In this document: piece by piece, positions 10,655 through 34,273 of the stretch | How positions within the stretch are numbered: position 1 is the stretch's first letter | Layout of the letters: each line of letters begins with the position of its first letter | NCBI GenBank assembly: GCA_902386385.1 | Contig: CABMIU010000048.1 | Span: forward strand, 1 to 49,309 | Source of the DNA: an uncultured archaeon | GTDB lineage: Archaea > Iainarchaeota > Iainarchaeia > Iainarchaeales > Iainarchaeaceae | Length of the DNA: 49,309 bases | Direction of reading: 5' to 3' | The notes under the pieces: model-generated | The model's database searches: none | Seen by the model: only the letters and a program-made list of their open reading frames with translations | What the model was told of the DNA's origin: nothing | Translations under genes and position numbers: made by a program

Positions 10655-10812
10655 CAGTTTCACCTAAAAGAAAAGGGTGTAATCTTCCTATAAAAATTTC
10701 CTCATTTGAGCCTTACAGTGTCCAGCAACAGTTTCGTCTGAGAGCGCCTCGGAAGGGCGTATGTTTGTTGGGTGCGACGGATATCCCGCAAATAGTGGGA
10801 TAAGCCTGGCAT

Positions 10813-26184: not shown

Positions 26185-27417
26185 TCAGTTCTGCTCAATC
26201 AGTTCCCTTTCAATGAGCCCTTTTATTTTCTCCGCGTCAAAGCCGAGCTTTATCAGCGTTGTCTGCCCCTTTATTCCTTTTCCCGAAGCGGTGGTGTAAA
26301 TGAGGCCGTACATTTCCAGCTCATTTATGTACTCGCGGTACCAGCGCGAGCTCACAATCTCTTCCTTGTGCTTCTTCGCGATTTTGCAGTACTCATCATA
26401 AACCTCGCCTGAAAACAAAACTCCTTTCTCCGTTTCGCCGGTTATTTTCGGCTGGGGCTTCTTTGTGAGCGAGAGAACGGCAATCGAATAGAGCACGAAC
26501 TGCTGCTGCTCCGGAAGGGTTGAAACCATGTTGTAAACCAGTTCCTCTTCAACCTGTACCTTGGCCTTCATTACCTCGCGGTCGGTCACTTTCCCGCTTC
26601 CCCTGCGGTCCGCTATTTCGCCGGCGCGGAGCAGGAGCATTACCGCAGTCCTCGCATCTCCTGATTCCTGCGCAGCTATTGCAGCGGCGAGGCATACTGC
26701 TGATTCCTCGACAGTATCCGGCTTGAAAGCCATTCCTGTGCGCTGCCTGAGTATTTCAGTCAGTTCCTGCGCGTTGTATGGCGGGAAAACCATTTCGTTC
26801 TCGCACAGCGAGCTTTTCGTGCGCGGGTCAAGGCGGTCCTTGAACATCAGGTTGTTTGAAATCCCTATGAGGGAAATGCTTCCGCTGCTCCCAATCTCAT
26901 CGTTGCCGCGCGTGAGCCCGTAAATCAATTCATCAAGGTCTTTTACCTTGTCGATTTCATCAAGCACGAGGACAATATGCTTTCCGCCAGCTTTTTCTTT
27001 GCCCCGCGCGTGCTCCAGCAGTTTTTCGTAAACAAACGCGGCAGAGTAGCCCATGAAATCCTCTTCCGGGAAAAAGTCCTTCACTATTTTGCTAAGGATG
27101 CGGTATTTCGAGTTGTGGTTCCTGCAGTTAACGTAATTGCCCTCGACAGGGATGTTTTTCGCTGAAGCGAATTCAAGCAGTTGCTGCATCACTAGCCTTG
27201 TCACGGAGGTCTTGCCAGTGCCGCATTTCCCGTAAATGAAAAGATTGTCAGGCTTCTCCCCGTGCAGGGTTTTTGAGAGAATCCCCGATATTTCCCCGAT
27301 GTATTTGTCCCTGAAAAGGAGCTTCTGCGGCGTGAAGTGCGGCGTGATGAGGTTCCTGTCGAGGAAAATGGTTTCCCTCGCGAATTCTCGCTCAAAAATA
27401 TTAACCAGCTCAGCCAA
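26185..27417 (-). CDS. cdc6: Orc1/Cdc6 replication initiator
   Basis: YGKCGTGKT, LVLDEID, LDPRTKSSL, FPPYNAQEL, GDAR, C-terminal wHTH. TTG start inferred. Confidence 0.96.
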   Translation of the reverse strand: MAELVNIFEREFARETIFLDRNLITPHFTPQKLLFRDKYIGEISGILSKTLHGEKPDNLFIYGKCGTGKTSVTRLVMQQLLEFASAKNIPVEGNYVNCRNHNSKYRILSKIVKDFFPEEDFMGYSAAFVYEKLLEHARGKEKAGGKHIVLVLDEIDKVKDLDELIYGLTRGNDEIGSSGSISLIGISNNLMFKDRLDPRTKSSLCENEMVFPPYNAQELTEILRQRTGMAFKPDTVEESAVCLAAAIAAQESGDARTAVMLLLRAGEIADRRGSGKVTDREVMKAKVQVEEELVYNMVSTLPEQQQFVLYSIAVLSLTKKPQPKITGETEKGVLFSGEVYDEYCKIAKKHKEEIVSSRWYREYINELEMYGLIYTTASGKGIKGQTTLIKLGFDAEKIKGLIERELIEQN

Positions 27418-27577
27418 ACTGCAACCCCATTCCAATAGGCATGATTAGGTTAAAACAAAATCGGGTTATGGAAGTGAACAAACTTCCACTAATCGGGTTC
27501 GGTTTCCGAATGGGTTAATGCCGAAACATGGCACTGGCCCAAGGCACGATTTAACCATTTTCTGGCCCCATTCTCTT

Positions 27578-27910
27578 TCAAGTCTCGCCAGGCCCAAGTT
27601 CACGTTCTATTTGCTTGGCGTCCCTCGCATGGGCAGCGGCTCTACATGTCTGGTACGCTTTCGTCTTTTCAAGTATTAACCGCCACTTTTGCTCCGGTGT
27701 CAAGGCCTTGCATGTTTGATATACCGTTTCTTTGCGTGCTGGCTTTGCCTGTGCCCTTTCAATTTTTTTTCTGGGTTGCCCCGAAGCATTTATTCTTACC
27801 CGAGCCATGACAGTTTCTGCTTCGGCACGCCTTCGCTCTTTTGTGTGATTTCGCTCTTCGCTTTCTGCCCTGTAGCGCGAAAGCCTTTCCTGCAAATTAG
27901 GTCTTGGCAT
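27578..27910 (-). CDS. Basic hypothetical protein (MPRPNLQERLSRY...)
   Basis: ATG 27910 with TATA-like TTTTATA at about 27943-27949; frame is open further upstream. Confidence 0.55.
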   Translation of the reverse strand: MPRPNLQERLSRYRAESEERNHTKERRRAEAETVMARVRINASGQPRKKIERAQAKPARKETVYQTCKALTPEQKWRLILEKTKAYQTCRAAAHARDAKQIERELGPGET

Positions 27911-27986
27911 TTTTCCATCCCGGATTAATGAAGCCCGCGAACTATAAAAACATTTGCAGCCTCTGGCTGAAGTCTGTCCCATGGCC

Positions 27987-28823
27987 TTAATGATGTCTGC
28001 CATACCTTCCACTGTGAGATTTTCCCGTATCGATGTCATCCATCTCCTCCCTTGTCGGATGCCGGAGTTCATTGCCGCTCAACACGAGCGGGTTATAAGA
28101 CGGGTTTAGCACGTACTTTGTGCCATTATAGCCGGTTTGCACTTCGCGGACAAACTGCCCGTTTGGCGCATGAAATATGATTTTCGGGGGGTTATTTGGC
28201 GTTTGCAAGATTGTGTACTGCAAGCGTCCGATATTTTTGGCGTTTTGGGGGGCAACATTCCTTTGTATTGCGGATTTCGCAGGCCTCCGCTTTTCTGTTT
28301 GGCCTTGCCTTGTCTCTCCTTGGCTTTTACTGATTTGCCAGCCATATTGCCCAAGCCGTGCCTTGGCAATTTCAATTTGCGGCACTTTGGCGGGTCTGCC
28401 CGGTTTTTCCGCGGCCACACCAGCTTTCGTATGCCTTGCGGGCACAGGCTTTTGGCTTGGCTGTTCCCTTTCTTTTTCCCCTCTAAGTCCGGCGGTTTTC
28501 AGCACATGTTTCCATTTTTCCGCCATTAGTTCAAGCGGAATTTTTTTCTCTCTTAGCCTTGAAACTAGGCGCGTTATTCCGGATGCGCCGAGGTTTTCTT
28601 CCAGATATCGGAATTTTCTTTCTCCAAGTGCACTAGCAACATCCCGGAGTGAAATAGTATACTCTGGAATGGTTTCAAAAGAAAACTGCTTCCTAAGTTC
28701 TGCAGGCAGGCCATGTACTACGCGGGGTGTTGCCAATTTTCTCGTCTTTTCAATGAGCTGGTCTAACTTGTGCGGGTCATAACCTGTGCGGGTGGTTCGG
28801 CGTATAGGTTTCATCTTATCCAT
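27987..28823 (-). CDS. Basic hypothetical protein (MDKMKPIRRTTR...)
   Basis: 278-aa ORF; TATA-like TTATTATA about 20 nt upstream (leaderless). Confidence 0.65.
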   Translation of the reverse strand: MDKMKPIRRTTRTGYDPHKLDQLIEKTRKLATPRVVHGLPAELRKQFSFETIPEYTISLRDVASALGERKFRYLEENLGASGITRLVSRLREKKIPLELMAEKWKHVLKTAGLRGEKEREQPSQKPVPARHTKAGVAAEKPGRPAKVPQIEIAKARLGQYGWQISKSQGETRQGQTEKRRPAKSAIQRNVAPQNAKNIGRLQYTILQTPNNPPKIIFHAPNGQFVREVQTGYNGTKYVLNPSYNPLVLSGNELRHPTREEMDDIDTGKSHSGRYGRHH

Positions 28824-28904
28824 AATAACAAATGCACGAGGGTATAATAATTTTTAGTTATTGGGGTGTTTTTCTGATTTTTTTGCAGGGTTCTCTTTCT
28901 TGTT

Positions 28905-29140
28905 CCCCTTCAGGGTTTCGCCAGTGACATTTCCGCGTTGCGAAGCCAGAGTTTTCCCGAAGGGGATACAGGTCTGGCGGCCGCCTGCTCGCGGCGATAG
29001 AGCGGACAATCTTCGAGGGGCCTGTCCCGTCGCCAAAGGCGTTCGCCTTTCCGACGCGGTCTCGGACGGGGCAACCGTCGCACCCATTCTCCCAAGAGGG
29101 CGAAACGCCGAAACTGTTGCGGCTTGGACCTCTCCGCTGG
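28905..29140. ncRNA. Unassigned structured RNA candidate
   Basis: GC-rich intergenic island. Closing stems CCAGTG/CGCTGG and CCGCG/TGCGG enclose about 7 consecutive hairpins; G.U pairs favour the + strand. Confidence 0.6.
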
Positions 29141-29232
29141 TTTATGTAGCGTCCGGCAAAAGCTTAAAATATATGTATGGCATACTGGTATAAGCCACAC
29201 ATTTCTCGTTTTAATGAAGGGGTGATTAGTGG

Positions 29233-29586
29233 ATGGCATTCGTAGAGAAGCTTATTGGCAAGAAGGAAGAGCTCGACATGGAGGACTTCCTGAACAACCT
29301 TGACTCACAGGAGGAAGACCCGTATGAAGGGGCAGAGGCTCTTGTAAAGCCCATAAACCTTACCACGGAAGACGACGTCAAGGCGATTCTGGAGGAATCC
29401 AAGAAGGGCAACATAATGCTAGTCAACATCGCCGACCTCGGCAAGAGGAACGCGATGAAGCTCAAGGAGCTCCTTGGCGCGGTCAAGGACGGCGTTGAGA
29501 CAATTGACGGCGACATTGCAAGGGTTTCGCAGGAAAAAATAATAGTGACCCCCGCAAAGGTCAAGATAATCAAGAGAAAGGACTGA
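29233..29586 (+). CDS. sepF: Cell division protein SepF
   Basis: KKGNIMLVNI, IDGDIARV, IIVTPAKVKI; SD GGGGTGA. Confidence 0.9.
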   Translation: MAFVEKLIGKKEELDMEDFLNNLDSQEEDPYEGAEALVKPINLTTEDDVKAILEESKKGNIMLVNIADLGKRNAMKLKELLGAVKDGVETIDGDIARVSQEKIIVTPAKVKIIKRKD

Positions 29587-30667: not shown

Positions 30668-33600
30668 TTATGCGTAATCTAACAGGCTCTTCTGCTGCAC
30701 TTTTTCGTTCGTGAAAACGGAGTCTATTTCCCTTTCAATCAGGATTATCCTCTGCCTCAGGTAGTCGCTGAGGCCGTGCTTTGCTATCATCTCCTTTGCT
30801 ATTGCAAGGTATTTTCGCACAGAGCCCTGCGCTATCGTGAGTATTATCGTGTCGCTGCCGCATTCGGTGCATTTGCCGCACAGTGGCACGCGCCTGTACT
30901 TCGTGTTGCACTTGCTGCACCTGAACACCTGCCTCGAGAATGCGCGGGTGTTGCCTATTATGTCCGGCATGAAGTGGCTAACCATTACCCTTTCGAGCGC
31001 ATCCTTCTGGTCAATCGCCCTTATACGCCCCTGCACTGCGGCCTGCGCATTCATCTTTTCCTCCATTGACTTCAGAGACACGTATGTTGATTCCTTTGGC
31101 CCCGCATCGAACTGCGAGGTCTGGTGCGTGAATCCGAACCCGGTGTACTGGCCGGGCTTGCCTATTTTCCTCTTTATAATCGGCACCTGCACTGAATCCG
31201 GCTCTGCGTATGAAAGGCTCTTGAGGTAAAGCTCAACGGGGTATTCCCTGCATGTCTCCACTTCATACACCTCGTCATCTATTTCCTGCGGGTTTATTGA
31301 AACAGTGAAAACTAGCGGGGCGTCCATCCTTCCCCCGCGCGAGCCGGGCAAATAGAGCCTTGAAAAATTCAGGAGGGCATCCATCAGGAGCATTATCGAA
31401 TCCTGGTCGCCGTCGGCGTTGCGCCGTTTCGCGAGGTGGAAATAGGGATGGGCAAAATTCAGCTTTGCCTTTGTGTAGCCGATTATCCTGCACACCACCG
31501 CTGCAGAGGTGTGCGGGGCGAGACCAAGGAAAAGCTCGCCGATGAGCTGGTCCCGCGAGTCATAATTGTAATGGCTGCCCAGGCCGTAGAATCTCTCCAG
31601 TTCCTCATCAACGAACCTTGTAACCCTGAGGAAAAAATCCCCTGCGTCCTGGTTCACTATGATGTCCTGCACGAAAATCTCGCACAACTGTTCAGGGCTC
31701 ACGAGTTCCCTTCCCTCGAAGTCCTTTGTGTAGCCGAGTTCCCTCGCCTTTTCAACGCTAAGGCCTATTTCGCTTGGCTTGAAGTGCGTGAGCGGCGCGT
31801 TCAGTAGCTCGAACCTTATTGTGCCGTCCCTGAATATGTGCAGGTTGTGCCTCGCCCTGAGAATGCCCTTTTCCAGCGGCTCAGGGATTTTTTGTATATT
31901 TATGAGCCCTTTCACCCCTTTCACGAGTGGGGGTATCGGCACCCTGAGGTTTGCGGATGCCTGCTGTAGCATTTTTGCGAGCCCTATTTTCCGCTTGATG
32001 AATGCGCTTGTTTCAGAGCCGCATTGCGGGCATTTTTCCTCTTTCGAGTACTTGCCGCACTTCTGGCATCTCCTCACAAGCTCGTTCCTTTTCCCGTCCT
32101 CCATTGAATATGGCTGTTCCTCTATCTGCCCTGTTTCAGGGTTCAGGAAATAAGCGATTTCCGATTCGACATTGTTTGTCTCCGCTGCCTTGTTCACCGA
32201 CCTGATGTTGCCCCCCATTATGCCGATTGGGAAAAGGACCATCGGGTCTCCAACCATCTTGCGCGGCCTCGCCGCCTCAGGCCTTCCCATCCTGCACCCG
32301 ATGAAGGTTCCTGCCTTGTCCATTATTTTCAATCCGGAAATTCGCGAAAGCATTTCAAAAACCGGCATCATGGGGTCCGGCTCTGCGATGCTCGTGCCAC
32401 CAAAGGTCTTGAAGAAAGAGTAGGCGTATTCCTTTCCGATGATTATCCTGCTTTGCCCCTGCTCCGAAGGTACGGCATTTCCATTGCCATGATTTTCCGT
32501 GGCGTTTCCATGTTGGCTGCCATTGGCTGGATTTGTGCCATTGCTTTCTCCGCCGTTGCCCGCATCGCCATTGGAGCTGCCCCCGCCAGGCTGGGTATGC
32601 CGTATAAAGTGCGGTACCCCTATCATGTCCAGCATTGCCTTTGCCTTTTCGCCGAAAGGGATTGAAAGCTCCATTTCCGAGCCTTCAAAGTTTTTCTCCG
32701 ATGCCCTCACTGCCGCGATGAGTTCGCAGGCTTCCCGCGAAGACAACCCCGAGTAATAATGAAGGAAATTCGGGTGCAGCGGCACGCCGAGCTGGATGGA
32801 AAGCTCAATAGCAGTGCTCTGGTCAACCATTGCGGGATTTGAAAGTATTTTTTCCATGTTGAATGCTGATGCGATTCCCCCGTTTCCGTGCAATGCCTCT
32901 TCTAGCTCAAGCTTCCACCATTCCTCGCAGTATCCCGCAGGCATCAATGGGTGTGCGGTTTTCCTGAAATCCCCGAGCGCTATCAGCATGTCCCCCAAAA
33001 AAAGTATTTGCCCGACCTTTCCCATCACCTGTTCCGCTTCCTCTGCCGTCTTTATTTTCCTTACCTCGCCGCTCTTCAGCTTCACGATTGGGCCCTCTAT
33101 CGTGTCAACGGGAAAAACCTCGGCGCTCTTTCCCTGCCTCTCAACTTTTGCCTGCGAGCCAACCGCGAGAAAGCCGTCCAGCATGACCATTGTGCCGGGA
33201 TGTATCCCTTTTGCCATCACGCAGGTGTTCCTCGCCCTTCCGTAGCGCAGCCTGAAGCCGCCGAATTTGGAAGGGTAGGAAAATATCGGCCTTCCCGCGG
33301 CGATTTTCGAGAGGTACGAGTAATTGGGCTTCAGCTCCTTCTCTTCCCCCCCTGCGGAGCTCTTGCCGATTTTTATTACCTCCTCGAGCCACGACCAGTT
33401 AAGGCCAAGCATTTTAGAGAGGCTCATTATCTTCATTGCCTTCAGCCCTATCCCCTCGGAAACAACGAGGCACATGCCGCCCCGTATCTTGTTGCTGGGT
33501 ATCCTCTCGAGGTTCTTGAATGCATTCACTTCGCGGTCCTCGGTCGGCTCGCCGTTAATGCAAACAGGGCAGCCCCTTATTATTTTCCTGACATCATCGT

Positions 33601-34273
33601 CCTTGAGCTTGAACTGCCGTGTTATTATTTCATCATAAATGTTGATTTCCTCGACATAGCGCTCCACTTCATCATCAGTCGGCTTGTACCTGTCGAGCTG
33701 CATCAGTTGCCTCGCATAATCGCCTAAAATCAGCGGGAACACCGTTGCAGTCCCCCCCGCGGCCCTTATGGGCCCGGCGAAATAAATGTCCACATATTTG
33801 CTCCCGTCAGGGTTTTTGCTTATCTTGACATGCGGCACGCCGTCAAGCGGAGCCACCACTACCCCCTCCGTTACAAGCATGAGGCTGCTTTTAACTGCCT
33901 GCTCGAGGCGCTTCTCATCATCCGGGATTTCGCATATTTTCTGCTCAAGTATCTCCCTGAAAATCTGGAATATTGTCCTGTTCCTGTCGCCTTTGTGCTC
34001 TGCATAAAGCTCCCTGTACCTCTTCGCTATTCCAGGGGGCCCTATGATGTTCTCTGTCCTGTCCGCGAGGTCCAGGGTAGGGGGACATTCAACCTCGAGG
34101 CATGCATCCTTCCCTTTTTCCCTCGCCCTGCGGGCCGCCTCGAACTGGAATGATGCTTTCTTTCTCAGGGCTGCAAAATAGGATTGCACCATCTCTTCCC
34201 CGAAGCCTCCCGCAGTTTCATTTTTTGCTTTGGCGGGCATTTCCTGTTTAGGGGTTTCATGAATTTCAGGCAT
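30668..34273 (-). CDS. polC: DNA polymerase D large subunit DP2
   Basis: AGPIRAAGGT, GGFRLRYGR, IGCRMGRPE, RRNADGDQD catalytic motif, C-terminal Zn finger; no intein. Confidence 0.97.
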   Translation of the reverse strand: MPEIHETPKQEMPAKAKNETAGGFGEEMVQSYFAALRKKASFQFEAARRAREKGKDACLEVECPPTLDLADRTENIIGPPGIAKRYRELYAEHKGDRNRTIFQIFREILEQKICEIPDDEKRLEQAVKSSLMLVTEGVVVAPLDGVPHVKISKNPDGSKYVDIYFAGPIRAAGGTATVFPLILGDYARQLMQLDRYKPTDDEVERYVEEINIYDEIITRQFKLKDDDVRKIIRGCPVCINGEPTEDREVNAFKNLERIPSNKIRGGMCLVVSEGIGLKAMKIMSLSKMLGLNWSWLEEVIKIGKSSAGGEEKELKPNYSYLSKIAAGRPIFSYPSKFGGFRLRYGRARNTCVMAKGIHPGTMVMLDGFLAVGSQAKVERQGKSAEVFPVDTIEGPIVKLKSGEVRKIKTAEEAEQVMGKVGQILFLGDMLIALGDFRKTAHPLMPAGYCEEWWKLELEEALHGNGGIASAFNMEKILSNPAMVDQSTAIELSIQLGVPLHPNFLHYYSGLSSREACELIAAVRASEKNFEGSEMELSIPFGEKAKAMLDMIGVPHFIRHTQPGGGSSNGDAGNGGESNGTNPANGSQHGNATENHGNGNAVPSEQGQSRIIIGKEYAYSFFKTFGGTSIAEPDPMMPVFEMLSRISGLKIMDKAGTFIGCRMGRPEAARPRKMVGDPMVLFPIGIMGGNIRSVNKAAETNNVESEIAYFLNPETGQIEEQPYSMEDGKRNELVRRCQKCGKYSKEEKCPQCGSETSAFIKRKIGLAKMLQQASANLRVPIPPLVKGVKGLINIQKIPEPLEKGILRARHNLHIFRDGTIRFELLNAPLTHFKPSEIGLSVEKARELGYTKDFEGRELVSPEQLCEIFVQDIIVNQDAGDFFLRVTRFVDEELERFYGLGSHYNYDSRDQLIGELFLGLAPHTSAAVVCRIIGYTKAKLNFAHPYFHLAKRRNADGDQDSIMLLMDALLNFSRLYLPGSRGGRMDAPLVFTVSINPQEIDDEVYEVETCREYPVELYLKSLSYAEPDSVQVPIIKRKIGKPGQYTGFGFTHQTSQFDAGPKESTYVSLKSMEEKMNAQAAVQGRIRAIDQKDALERVMVSHFMPDIIGNTRAFSRQVFRCSKCNTKYRRVPLCGKCTECGSDTIILTIAQGSVRKYLAIAKEMIAKHGLSDYLRQRIILIEREIDSVFTNEKVQQKSLLDYA

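Follow-up and report, generated by a model that had tools for sequence, protein, structure and literature searches.

The window analysed here, 49,309 nucleotides (nt) in length, is contig C48 of an uncultured archaeon of the Iainarchaeaceae, whose genome (G000) comprises 1.09 Mb in 63 contigs, is 84% complete and has a GC content of about 50%. Upstream of the sepF gene in this window lies a GC-rich island (28882..29140, the left boundary being uncertain and 28882 approximate), which had been predicted from its sequence to be a single novel non-coding RNA, a ribozyme or a highly diverged housekeeping RNA. We think it likely that the island belongs, as a composite copy, to a family of mobile structured repeats specific to this lineage, and is not a housekeeping RNA or a unique ribozyme. 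Its modules recur elsewhere, the island is missing at the sepF loci of relatives, and the core family to which its main part belongs inserts with long target duplications. The island copy probably arrived by the same insertion route, and it presumably has no function tied to sepF.

We propose the following scenario. Short hairpin-forming repeats would have multiplied within the genomes of Iainarchaeia (Diapherotrites, DPANN). The backbone of the island would be one such repeat, the core, on the minus strand, with both of its hairpins expanded by other repeat modules; we tentatively read the whole island as one composite element on that strand, following the orientation of the core. Beyond the core would lie, in turn, a second module (hairpin-GCTCTAYC-GCCGCGAGCAGGCGGC), a hairpin with GCCAGAC and, in inverted orientation, a copy of a third repeat. 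The island may thus represent an old or compound copy, perhaps a "long form" (core, module 2 and GCCAGAC tail) with nested further modules, which would have landed in a spacer where relatives also carry other inserts.

Repeat modules of the island

At least four modules make up the island, and they are found again elsewhere in this genome and in related Iainarchaeia. Along the minus strand it opens with a 21-nt stretch just 5' of the core (29120..29140; CCAGCGGAGAGGTCCAAGCCG on that strand). This stretch is unique in the genome at up to 4 mismatches, and in other core copies its position is taken by the target duplicate. The 5' part of the core follows (29077..29119, minus strand, nhmmer E 0.0012), with an arm and the loop of hairpin 1 (CAACAGTTTCG) at 29109-29119 and the conserved word TGGGTGCGAC at 29077-29086. 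Hairpin 1 is interrupted by two small hairpins (29087-29108), and the same interruption (CCTCTTGGGAGG) occurs in a paralog at C22:34139(-) and in the related genome G019. Hairpin 2 of the core occupies 29019..29076 on the minus strand. Its arms (29065-29076 and 29019-29031) match those of simple core copies (GGTTATCCCGTC...GACGGGATAAGCC), and its loop is filled by a further module, CCGAGACCGCGTCGG with the stem AAAGGC/GCCTTT (29032-29064). The CCGAGACCGCGTCGG..GGCG motif recurs in the second core copy of the window, on contig C22 (twice) and in the closest congener, G004. The segment 29019-29099 has a paralog at C22:33985-34109 (92% over 48 nt).

The second core copy of the window is also an expanded one (10725-10806, plus strand). 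It reads CAACAG, an insert CTGAGAGCGCCTCGGAAGGGCG, then TGTTGGGTGCGAC and a hairpin GGATATCCCGC..GTGGGATAAGCC, and a repeat resembling module (a), described below, follows directly together with an AAAAGG hairpin (to 10890).

Module 2 (28980..29027, minus strand) consists of the hairpin GGACA/TGTCC, the word GCTCTATC and the hairpin GCCGC-GAGCAG-GCGGC. Its hairpin word, with up to 1 mismatch, was found in 15 of the 196 genomes of the order, the reversed control giving none. Twenty of the 28 distinct instances carry a (G/T)CT(C/T)T..C word and a hairpin just upstream; the remaining 8 look like chance matches. Three instances lie directly against tRNA genes predicted by ARAGORN, two more do so as judged by eye, and one is situated in the P12 region of the G004 RNase P RNA. 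That RNA (locus L046, 1313-1568, G004:C111) scores 49.5 bits (E 7e-13) against a gathering score of 84. Module 2 and a hairpin resembling the core (GATATCCCGTTTGCGAACGG) take up its P12; the P12 of G000 is minimal. Within module 2, the first base of the upstream word (G/T) and loop position 4 of the hairpin (C/A) match, G with C and T with A, in 16 of the 20 good instances, counted by eye and with no control. This base match may reflect a pseudoknot.

The next part on the minus strand is the hairpin GCCAGA...TCTGGC (28945..28979). Its 5' word (C)GCCAGAC follows module 2 in the same manner in G004 (2 loci) and at C5; the 3' arm is not conserved in these homologs. The island and the two G004 loci share the order core, module 2, (C)GCCAGAC, and core followed by module 2 is also found in G011. 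A longer paralog at C5:13140-13330 has a core-like word and a CCAGACC tail, without the module-2 hairpin word.

Module (a) closes the array (28877..28924). It is a repeat of about 35-48 nt (GTTCTCTTTCTTGTTCCCCTTCAGGGTTTCGCCA, 28890-28923) on the plus strand, inverted relative to the core. The genome holds 11 further copies with 85-97% identity, usually followed by a CCTTTT...AAAAGG hairpin, and one of them lies inside a predicted intron-bearing tRNA gene on C1. As to tRNA introns in general, ARAGORN with intron search predicts 49 tRNA genes in G000, 21 of them with introns of up to 186 nt; without intron search the number is 29. Many of these introns contain polypurine/polypyrimidine hairpin repeats.

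The helices named in the original prediction are real as sequence: a script located all of them at or within a few bases of where it had placed them. They comprise GCCAGA/TCTGGC (28945-28950 / 28973-28978), which encloses TCCCGAAGGGGA at 28955-28966, GCCGC..GCGGC (28980-28995), GGACA/TGTCC (29004-29008 / 29023-29027), AAAGGCGTTCGCCTTT (29035-29050), CCGA..TCGG (29051-29065), GACGGGGCAACCGTC (29065-29079) and GGCGAAACGCC (29099-29109). Two further helices, CCAGTG/CGCTGG (28921-28926 / 29135-29140) and CCGCG/TGCGG (28933-28937 / 29118-29122), had been taken to enclose the whole as one RNA, and this we cannot uphold. The first joins part of module (a) to the 21-nt stretch that precedes the core on its 5' side, the second a segment around 28933 to the bases with which the core begins. 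Because both closing helices bridge different modules, they are probably fortuitous. No counterpart of them was seen in the homologs.

The core family: copies, insertion and candidate enzymes

The core is composed of hairpin 1 (CAACNG-TTTCGN-CNGTTG), the word GGTGCGA(C) and a second hairpin. In other words, after a 25-nt word made of a 6-bp hairpin and GGGTGCGA there comes a second hairpin, the sequence of which is free. At seven loci of the genome the core word and its hairpin are both present, and nhmmer adds more. Simple copies of 55-60 nt are located at C10:5531, C22:8781, C47:10333 and C62:15967; the copies at C22:34139(-) and in the window at 10725-10806 are expanded. With up to 2 mismatches, the 25-nt word is found in 27 of the 196 genomes of the order and in 18 of the 23 of the family (counting G000). 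The highest number of copies in one genome is 25 (G007), followed by 20 (G011) and 19 (G019); the reversed pattern, used as a control, had no match in any genome. In its exact form the word was found at 17 loci of species genomes in the Genome Taxonomy Database (GTDB) and at 31 metagenome loci. Where the GTDB loci bear a taxon label, it is Candidatus Diapherotrites/Iainarchaeum, except for one that reads Woesearchaeota. An origin from a virus or plasmid was considered and rejected, the exact word being found in 0 viral contigs. Rfam searches of other simple and full-length copies returned neighbouring tRNAs and chance matches (E 0.026 or weaker, far below the cut-offs), and module 2 and the core did not fit the kink-turn (L7Ae) consensus by eye.

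The structure of the core was examined in 69 copies (60 fetched regions and four own-genome copies), which reduce to 24 distinct rows. Pair 5-14 of hairpin 1 is A-T in 47 copies, C-G in 20, T-A in one and C-A in one. Loop position 9 pairs with position 25 as T-A (59 copies), G-C (5), C-G (3) or T-G (1), and one copy has C-C; the G-C and C-G variants may each be one subfamily, which would leave perhaps two or three independent events. Across the 24 distinct rows 96.8% of cells pair, a value reached by 0 of 500 shuffles and compared with 24-49% in slid controls, and two core pairs change on both sides. The original prediction had proposed a search for homologs upstream of sepF. No ortholog of the island came out of it; the hairpins of related copies are kept by compensatory change.

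The second hairpin behaves differently in sequence. The 40 nt after the core word are represented by 63 different sequences in 65 copies. They fold at -13.3 kcal/mol compared with -7.5 kcal/mol for shuffles, and 32 of the 65 beat all 30 of their shuffles; the 40 nt upstream of the word show no such excess (-4.65 vs -4.2 kcal/mol). A hairpin is thus maintained there whatever its sequence. The strand preference of folding is mixed, the whole element favouring the forward strand in 46 of 65 copies and hairpin 2 the reverse strand in 43 of 65. As judged by eye from G.U pairs, the long hairpin of the island favoured the minus strand and the closing helices the plus strand. The folded molecule may therefore be RNA, one DNA strand or either, and we make no strand call.

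Insertion is recorded by direct repeats. Of the 63 core copies whose flanks were long enough, 22 are bracketed by exact direct repeats of 12-35 nt; in the control, 40 shuffles per copy, the largest value was 5-11 nt. A preliminary analysis of 26 copies agreed with this. For 20 of the 22, the end of the upstream repeat falls -3 to +8 nt from the first base of the word, and the other two make up one inverted doublet. Metagenome copies have such repeats in 5 of 28 cases, four of them at already-seen loci and one at a new locus (L219, the 3' end of a tRNA-Leu gene). The 22 copies with defined ends do not share a 3' end, and a few doublets end in inverted cores. As no conserved sequence stands before the downstream repeat, sequence does not define where the element ends on its 3' side. 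A-rich tails were found only in some core copies (L150, L195).

The duplicated targets are often gene ends. In five cases (C10 Thr, C22 Gly, C62 Gly, L175 Leu, L219 Leu) the duplicate covers the stretch from the T-loop to the 3' end of a tRNA gene that lies downstream on the opposite strand. At L184 it takes in the leader and the first 14 nt of a tRNA-Pro gene, and at L179, L152, L167 and L206 it comprises the first codons of open reading frames (ORFs) identified by reading the sequence. In all 10 duplication-flanked copies with a recognised target, it is on the 3' side of the element that the gene is intact. One pair of filled and empty sites is available. In G013 a gene start is followed by a 64-nt element and then by the same 29 nt again, and the site is uninterrupted in the congener G009 and in G003. 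Core copies are situated in tRNA leaders, trailers and introns. Nesting is also seen, with core copies inside a tRNA-Gly intron (L094/L100) and tandem copies at L095, L153 and L190.

Some of the interrupted ORFs deserve separate description. The product at L179 starts MVRIAVVEKDRC... and presumably resembles the Fe-S domain of ABCE1. There (G013:C36) the duplicated start makes a 31-codon upstream frame through the element, whose stop TGA abuts the real ATG, an arrangement that could allow translation of the gene by re-initiation. At L152 (G006:C35) and L167 (G011:C3), where the ORF start reads ..IAVLEKDRC.., the repeats beyond their exact part differ at 6 positions, all of them synonymous third codon positions. 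It looks as if both repeat copies were kept as coding, or came from different alleles.

A mobilising enzyme was searched for in these genomes. G000 contains one Y1 (HUH) transposase gene (C12:7305-7778, minus strand, locus L103, 157 aa), which scores 41.9 bits with the IS200-like NCBIfam model (cut-off 55) and 20.8 bits with the REP-associated one (cut-off 80). Just after its stop codon there is GGTGCGAC with a hairpin. We rejected this Y1 as mobiliser and keep it as a weak lead: GGTGCGAC with the hairpin is present in only 2 of 12 copies of the insertion sequence (IS), its ends are unlike those of the core, and co-occurrence is poor. The Y1 type of C12 is found patchily in 16 of the 196 genomes, compared with 27 for the core (any Y1 in 55), and none of the core-rich genomes G007, G011, G013 and G015 has it. 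The element itself has an upstream end of ACTGCGTGGTCTGAAAGACCCGCAG and a long GC hairpin, conserved and strongly structured, and a conserved, structured downstream end ...GGGGGTCATAGGGGG..CCCCCTATTCCAC. Orthologs of its Y1 with 51-73% identity exist in 15 other genomes of the order over eight families, and several of them are interrupted by stops. As for other enzymes, G000 has two tyrosine integrases and no match to TnpB, Cas1 (casposase) or RVT_1. DDE_Tnp_1 is present in 4 of 5 copy-rich genomes, G011 being the one without it. RVT_1 was found in 0 of 6 genomes (G000 and the 5 copy-rich ones); because these genomes are only 84-90% complete, absence of an enzyme is not proven.

Several points weigh against our interpretation of the island as a mobile repeat. 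No direct repeat longer than expected by chance flanks the island itself (7 nt, shuffles reaching up to 11), and with its left boundary uncertain we infer its own insertion from that of the family. The enzyme search yielded no mobiliser, and G011, in spite of its 20 core copies, gave no match to Y1_Tnp, RVT_1 or DDE_Tnp_1. Further, the 25-nt word hardly varies among six genera and contains a long-range pair that covaries, TATA-like boxes stand just upstream of the copies at C5, C25, C22:13781 and G004:C21, and the order core, module 2, GCCAGAC is repeated in the two G004 loci. All three would also fit a functional RNA.

The island might then be a paralog of genuine small structured RNAs present in many copies, with their own or neighbouring promoters, which would act in trans or in cis (e.g. 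in tRNA or RNase P biology) and spread like SINE-like (short interspersed nuclear element) or snoRNA-like retrogenes. We regard this as rather unlikely. Strong conservation of the word, the compensatory pairs (that between loop and 3' side included) and the TATA-like boxes favour it, together with the sharp 5' boundary, the variable 3' end and the target duplications of variable length. Copies in tRNA leaders, trailers and introns and module 2 in the P12 of RNase P fit it as well, and the small RNA (sRNA)-like elements of Pyrobaculum, of the type of MITEs (miniature inverted-repeat transposable elements), offer a precedent (PMC6009581). Small RNAs spreading as retrogenes are, however, difficult to reconcile with the lack of an RVT_1 match in G000 and the 5 copy-rich genomes (84-90% complete) and with folding that has no consistent strand preference; there is also no Rfam match, and the island as a whole has no ortholog.

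The sepF locus and the setting of the island

We inspected 420 nt upstream of sepF in 24 loci from 23 genomes of the family, all 23 of which encode SepF. The island is absent from this place in all 22 other genomes. What is conserved there is the promoter (AAAGCCTTAAAATATAG), which in the window is the sepF B recognition element (BRE)/TATA box AAAGCTTAAAATATATG (29159-29175, plus strand), and the word TTATGTAG, located about 10-20 nt upstream of the promoter in relatives and at 29142-29149 (plus strand) in the window. Both lie outside the island, and the word marks its right edge. The original prediction had placed the island between divergent promoters. Its right-hand TATA box is this conserved sepF promoter; the second, outward promoter was not borne out. 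Of the sequencing runs listed as containing words of this stretch, none is an RNA run, and the share contained in one DNA run is small.

In the closest congener G004, whose SepF is 84% identical, an AT-rich spacer leads directly to TTATGTAGCCGCCCGGCAAAAGC, with no island in between. Its sequence rejoins the window at TTATGTAGC (29142-), just past the island. We had also derived a precise left insertion boundary from this comparison (GATTTTTTT), and withdrew it because the T-run there is also part of module (a) copies. A core element in opposite orientation occupies this spot in G013, GC-rich inserts of other kinds (0.56-0.61 GC) are found in G020 and G016, and in several relatives the AT-rich spacer stands alone. 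A DNA search of 40 relatives with 28880-29160 as query gave no match longer than 64 of 281 nt, and none at the sepF locus. With the exact 30-nt word of the right flank as probe for the empty site, 0 metagenome contigs were retrieved. Relatives carry one or two TTATGTAG words upstream of the sepF promoter, the window carrying one, and in some sepF loci (L066, L067, L072) two TTATGTA words bracket the variable inserts.

These comparisons do not agree with a single novel RNA gene upstream of sepF, as originally predicted, since the island is present in 0 of 22 other family genomes and is built of repeated, insertion-like modules. The sharp GC-richness that had drawn attention to it is confirmed (0.64 in 28905-29140, compared with 0.44 in 28700-28880 and 0.38 in 29141-29232). 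The dense structure holds in so far as the hairpins are present. On neither strand, however, is the minimum free energy better than that of dinucleotide shuffles: -97.6 kcal/mol against a shuffle mean of -97.5 on the plus strand (z -0.03) and -92.2 against -94.4 on the minus strand (z +0.44). Dense structure at the level of shuffles is what any sequence of 64% GC is expected to have.

It seems to us extremely improbable that the island encodes a novel, unique ribozyme or a strongly diverged housekeeping RNA. It is indeed unassigned, GC-rich and rich in hairpins. None of the 4227 models of Rfam 15 matched the window at gathering score, and with E up to 10 the region 28750-29300 gave only two chance-level matches (E 3.5 and 6.6), neither of them to a ribozyme family; no positive sign of a ribozyme was seen. 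Neither ARAGORN (tRNA and tmRNA genes) nor the Rfam tRNA model found anything in the window. The three ORFs that overlap the island (77, 110 and 109 aa) match 0 Pfam families, which bears out that no credible ORF is present. The original prediction was also right that the island lacks signatures of RNase P, the signal recognition particle (SRP) RNA or tRNA. Both housekeeping RNAs are encoded on other contigs, with scores above the Rfam cut-offs and no match in the window: RNase P RNA (RF00373) at C60:15395-15651 with 104.6 bits and SRP RNA (RF01857) at C58:7926-8197 with 117.7 bits. Their presence elsewhere removes the diverged housekeeping RNA. A unique ribozyme would in turn have to be reconciled with a fold z-score near 0, with no ortholog in the 40 relatives searched and with a modular, repeated composition.

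The genes around the island raise the question of a role in cis. To its left lie the Cdc6/Orc1 gene (26185-27435, minus strand), an ORF of 164 aa with no Pfam family (27578-28072, minus strand) and, overlapping the latter, an ORF of 278 aa, again with no Pfam family (27987-28823, minus strand). To its right, sepF (29233..29586, plus strand; Pfam SepF, E 2e-11) is followed by a long ORF (30668-34273, minus strand), which we read as the putative large subunit of DNA polymerase D. The 278-aa ORF found only itself among 5.8 billion proteins and has no counterpart at the sepF loci of relatives; the whole 1.8-kb spacer between cdc6 and sepF may be specific to this genome. In many relatives this spacer holds an inverted repeat GTTGTGGAAG..AACCACTTCCG beside the divergent cdc6, which may, judging from the letters, be a site resembling an origin recognition box (ORB).

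The island could accordingly serve as a 5' leader of ORF 27987-28823, as a regulator of sepF or as part of an origin beside cdc6. Its place between cdc6 and sepF, the ORB-like repeat of the relatives and, on the minus strand, the fact that a TATA-like box and the 278-aa ORF follow it immediately downstream are in line with such roles, all of which we nevertheless hold to be very unlikely. The ORF in question has no homolog, the ORB-like word has 0 matches in the window, and the same modules are found at unrelated loci. Moreover, none of the 22 relatives has the island at this place, whereas the sepF promoter is conserved.

Comparison with known systems

The literature, searched mostly at the level of abstracts, gave no description of these repeat elements, and the repeat family itself appears to be undescribed. 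We also put forward, as a possibility that we would not bet on, that the core represents a previously undescribed kind of archaeal mobile element moving by a new mechanism, neither a known transposase type nor a sign of reverse transcription having been found for it. Such an element would measure about 60 nt, lack both inverted ends and a conserved 3' end, insert with duplications of 12-35 bp, preferentially at the ends of tRNA and protein genes and with fixed polarity, nest with other modules into larger structured units such as the island, and enter tRNA introns, its companion module being found in the P12 of RNase P. An RNA or single-strand intermediate may take part in its movement.

For the field, a tempting orphan structured RNA probably comes down to a repeat mosaic, and similar GC-rich islands of Iainarchaeia warrant a check against these modules first. 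The very small genomes of DPANN archaea are usually thought of as streamlined; here genomes of 1 Mb carry up to 25 copies together with companion families. Long variable duplications restore the interrupted gene end, which explains how a compact genome tolerates the insertions. Filled and empty sites provide dated snapshots of the way in which archaea may acquire tRNA introns and expansion segments of their RNAs.

In bacteria, repetitive extragenic palindromic sequences (REPs) and their hairpin-forming doublets (REPINs) are short imperfect palindromes with a conserved lead word; they are not known to make long target duplications, and they are associated with tyrosine transposases of the Y1 (HUH) type (RAYTs). 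The core resembles them in its size of tens of nt, its conserved lead word, its many, mostly extragenic copies, its occurrence as singlets and inverted doublets (L174, L163, L206) and the single Y1 gene of G000. It differs from REPs in its long target duplications. Besides, that Y1 scores as IS200-like (below the cut-off) and not as REP-associated, the ends of its element are unlike the core, and copy-rich genomes lack this Y1 type.

MITEs are likewise small, non-coding, multi-copy, lineage-restricted elements found in unstable regions, and target duplications are seen in the core family too. Unlike them, the core mostly has no terminal inverted repeats and no conserved 3' end, and its duplications of 12-35 bp are variable instead of short and fixed. 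The palindromic elements of Rickettsia are structured repeats that enter RNA and protein genes and are translated in frame. The core and module 2 are tolerated in a similar way in tRNA introns, leaders and trailers, in the P12 of RNase P and in the first codons of ORFs. Their lineage and sequence are nevertheless different, and in the core family it is the target duplication that makes the interrupted gene end whole again. The nearest analogue found in print, the C/D-box sRNA element of Pyrobaculum calidifontis, is MITE-like and mixes features of an sRNA and of a mobile element (PMC6009581); in contrast to it, no C/D boxes were seen in the core.

For a SINE-like retroposon the picture is mixed: the duplications are variable and the 5' end is sharp, A-rich tails are confined to some copies, and RVT_1 was found in none of the six genomes searched, which are 84-90% complete. 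IS1634-type insertion sequences, on which Vilei et al. wrote in 1999, reportedly create long direct repeats of variable length, and are said to be kb-sized DDE elements with inverted ends. The core shares with them the long, variable-length target duplications, although it is not a kb-sized DDE element and DDE_Tnp_1 occurs in only four of the five copy-rich genomes. The long and variable duplications point to an insertion mechanism that is not obviously any known one, and these duplications, with the polarity of insertion, are the part of the family worth following.

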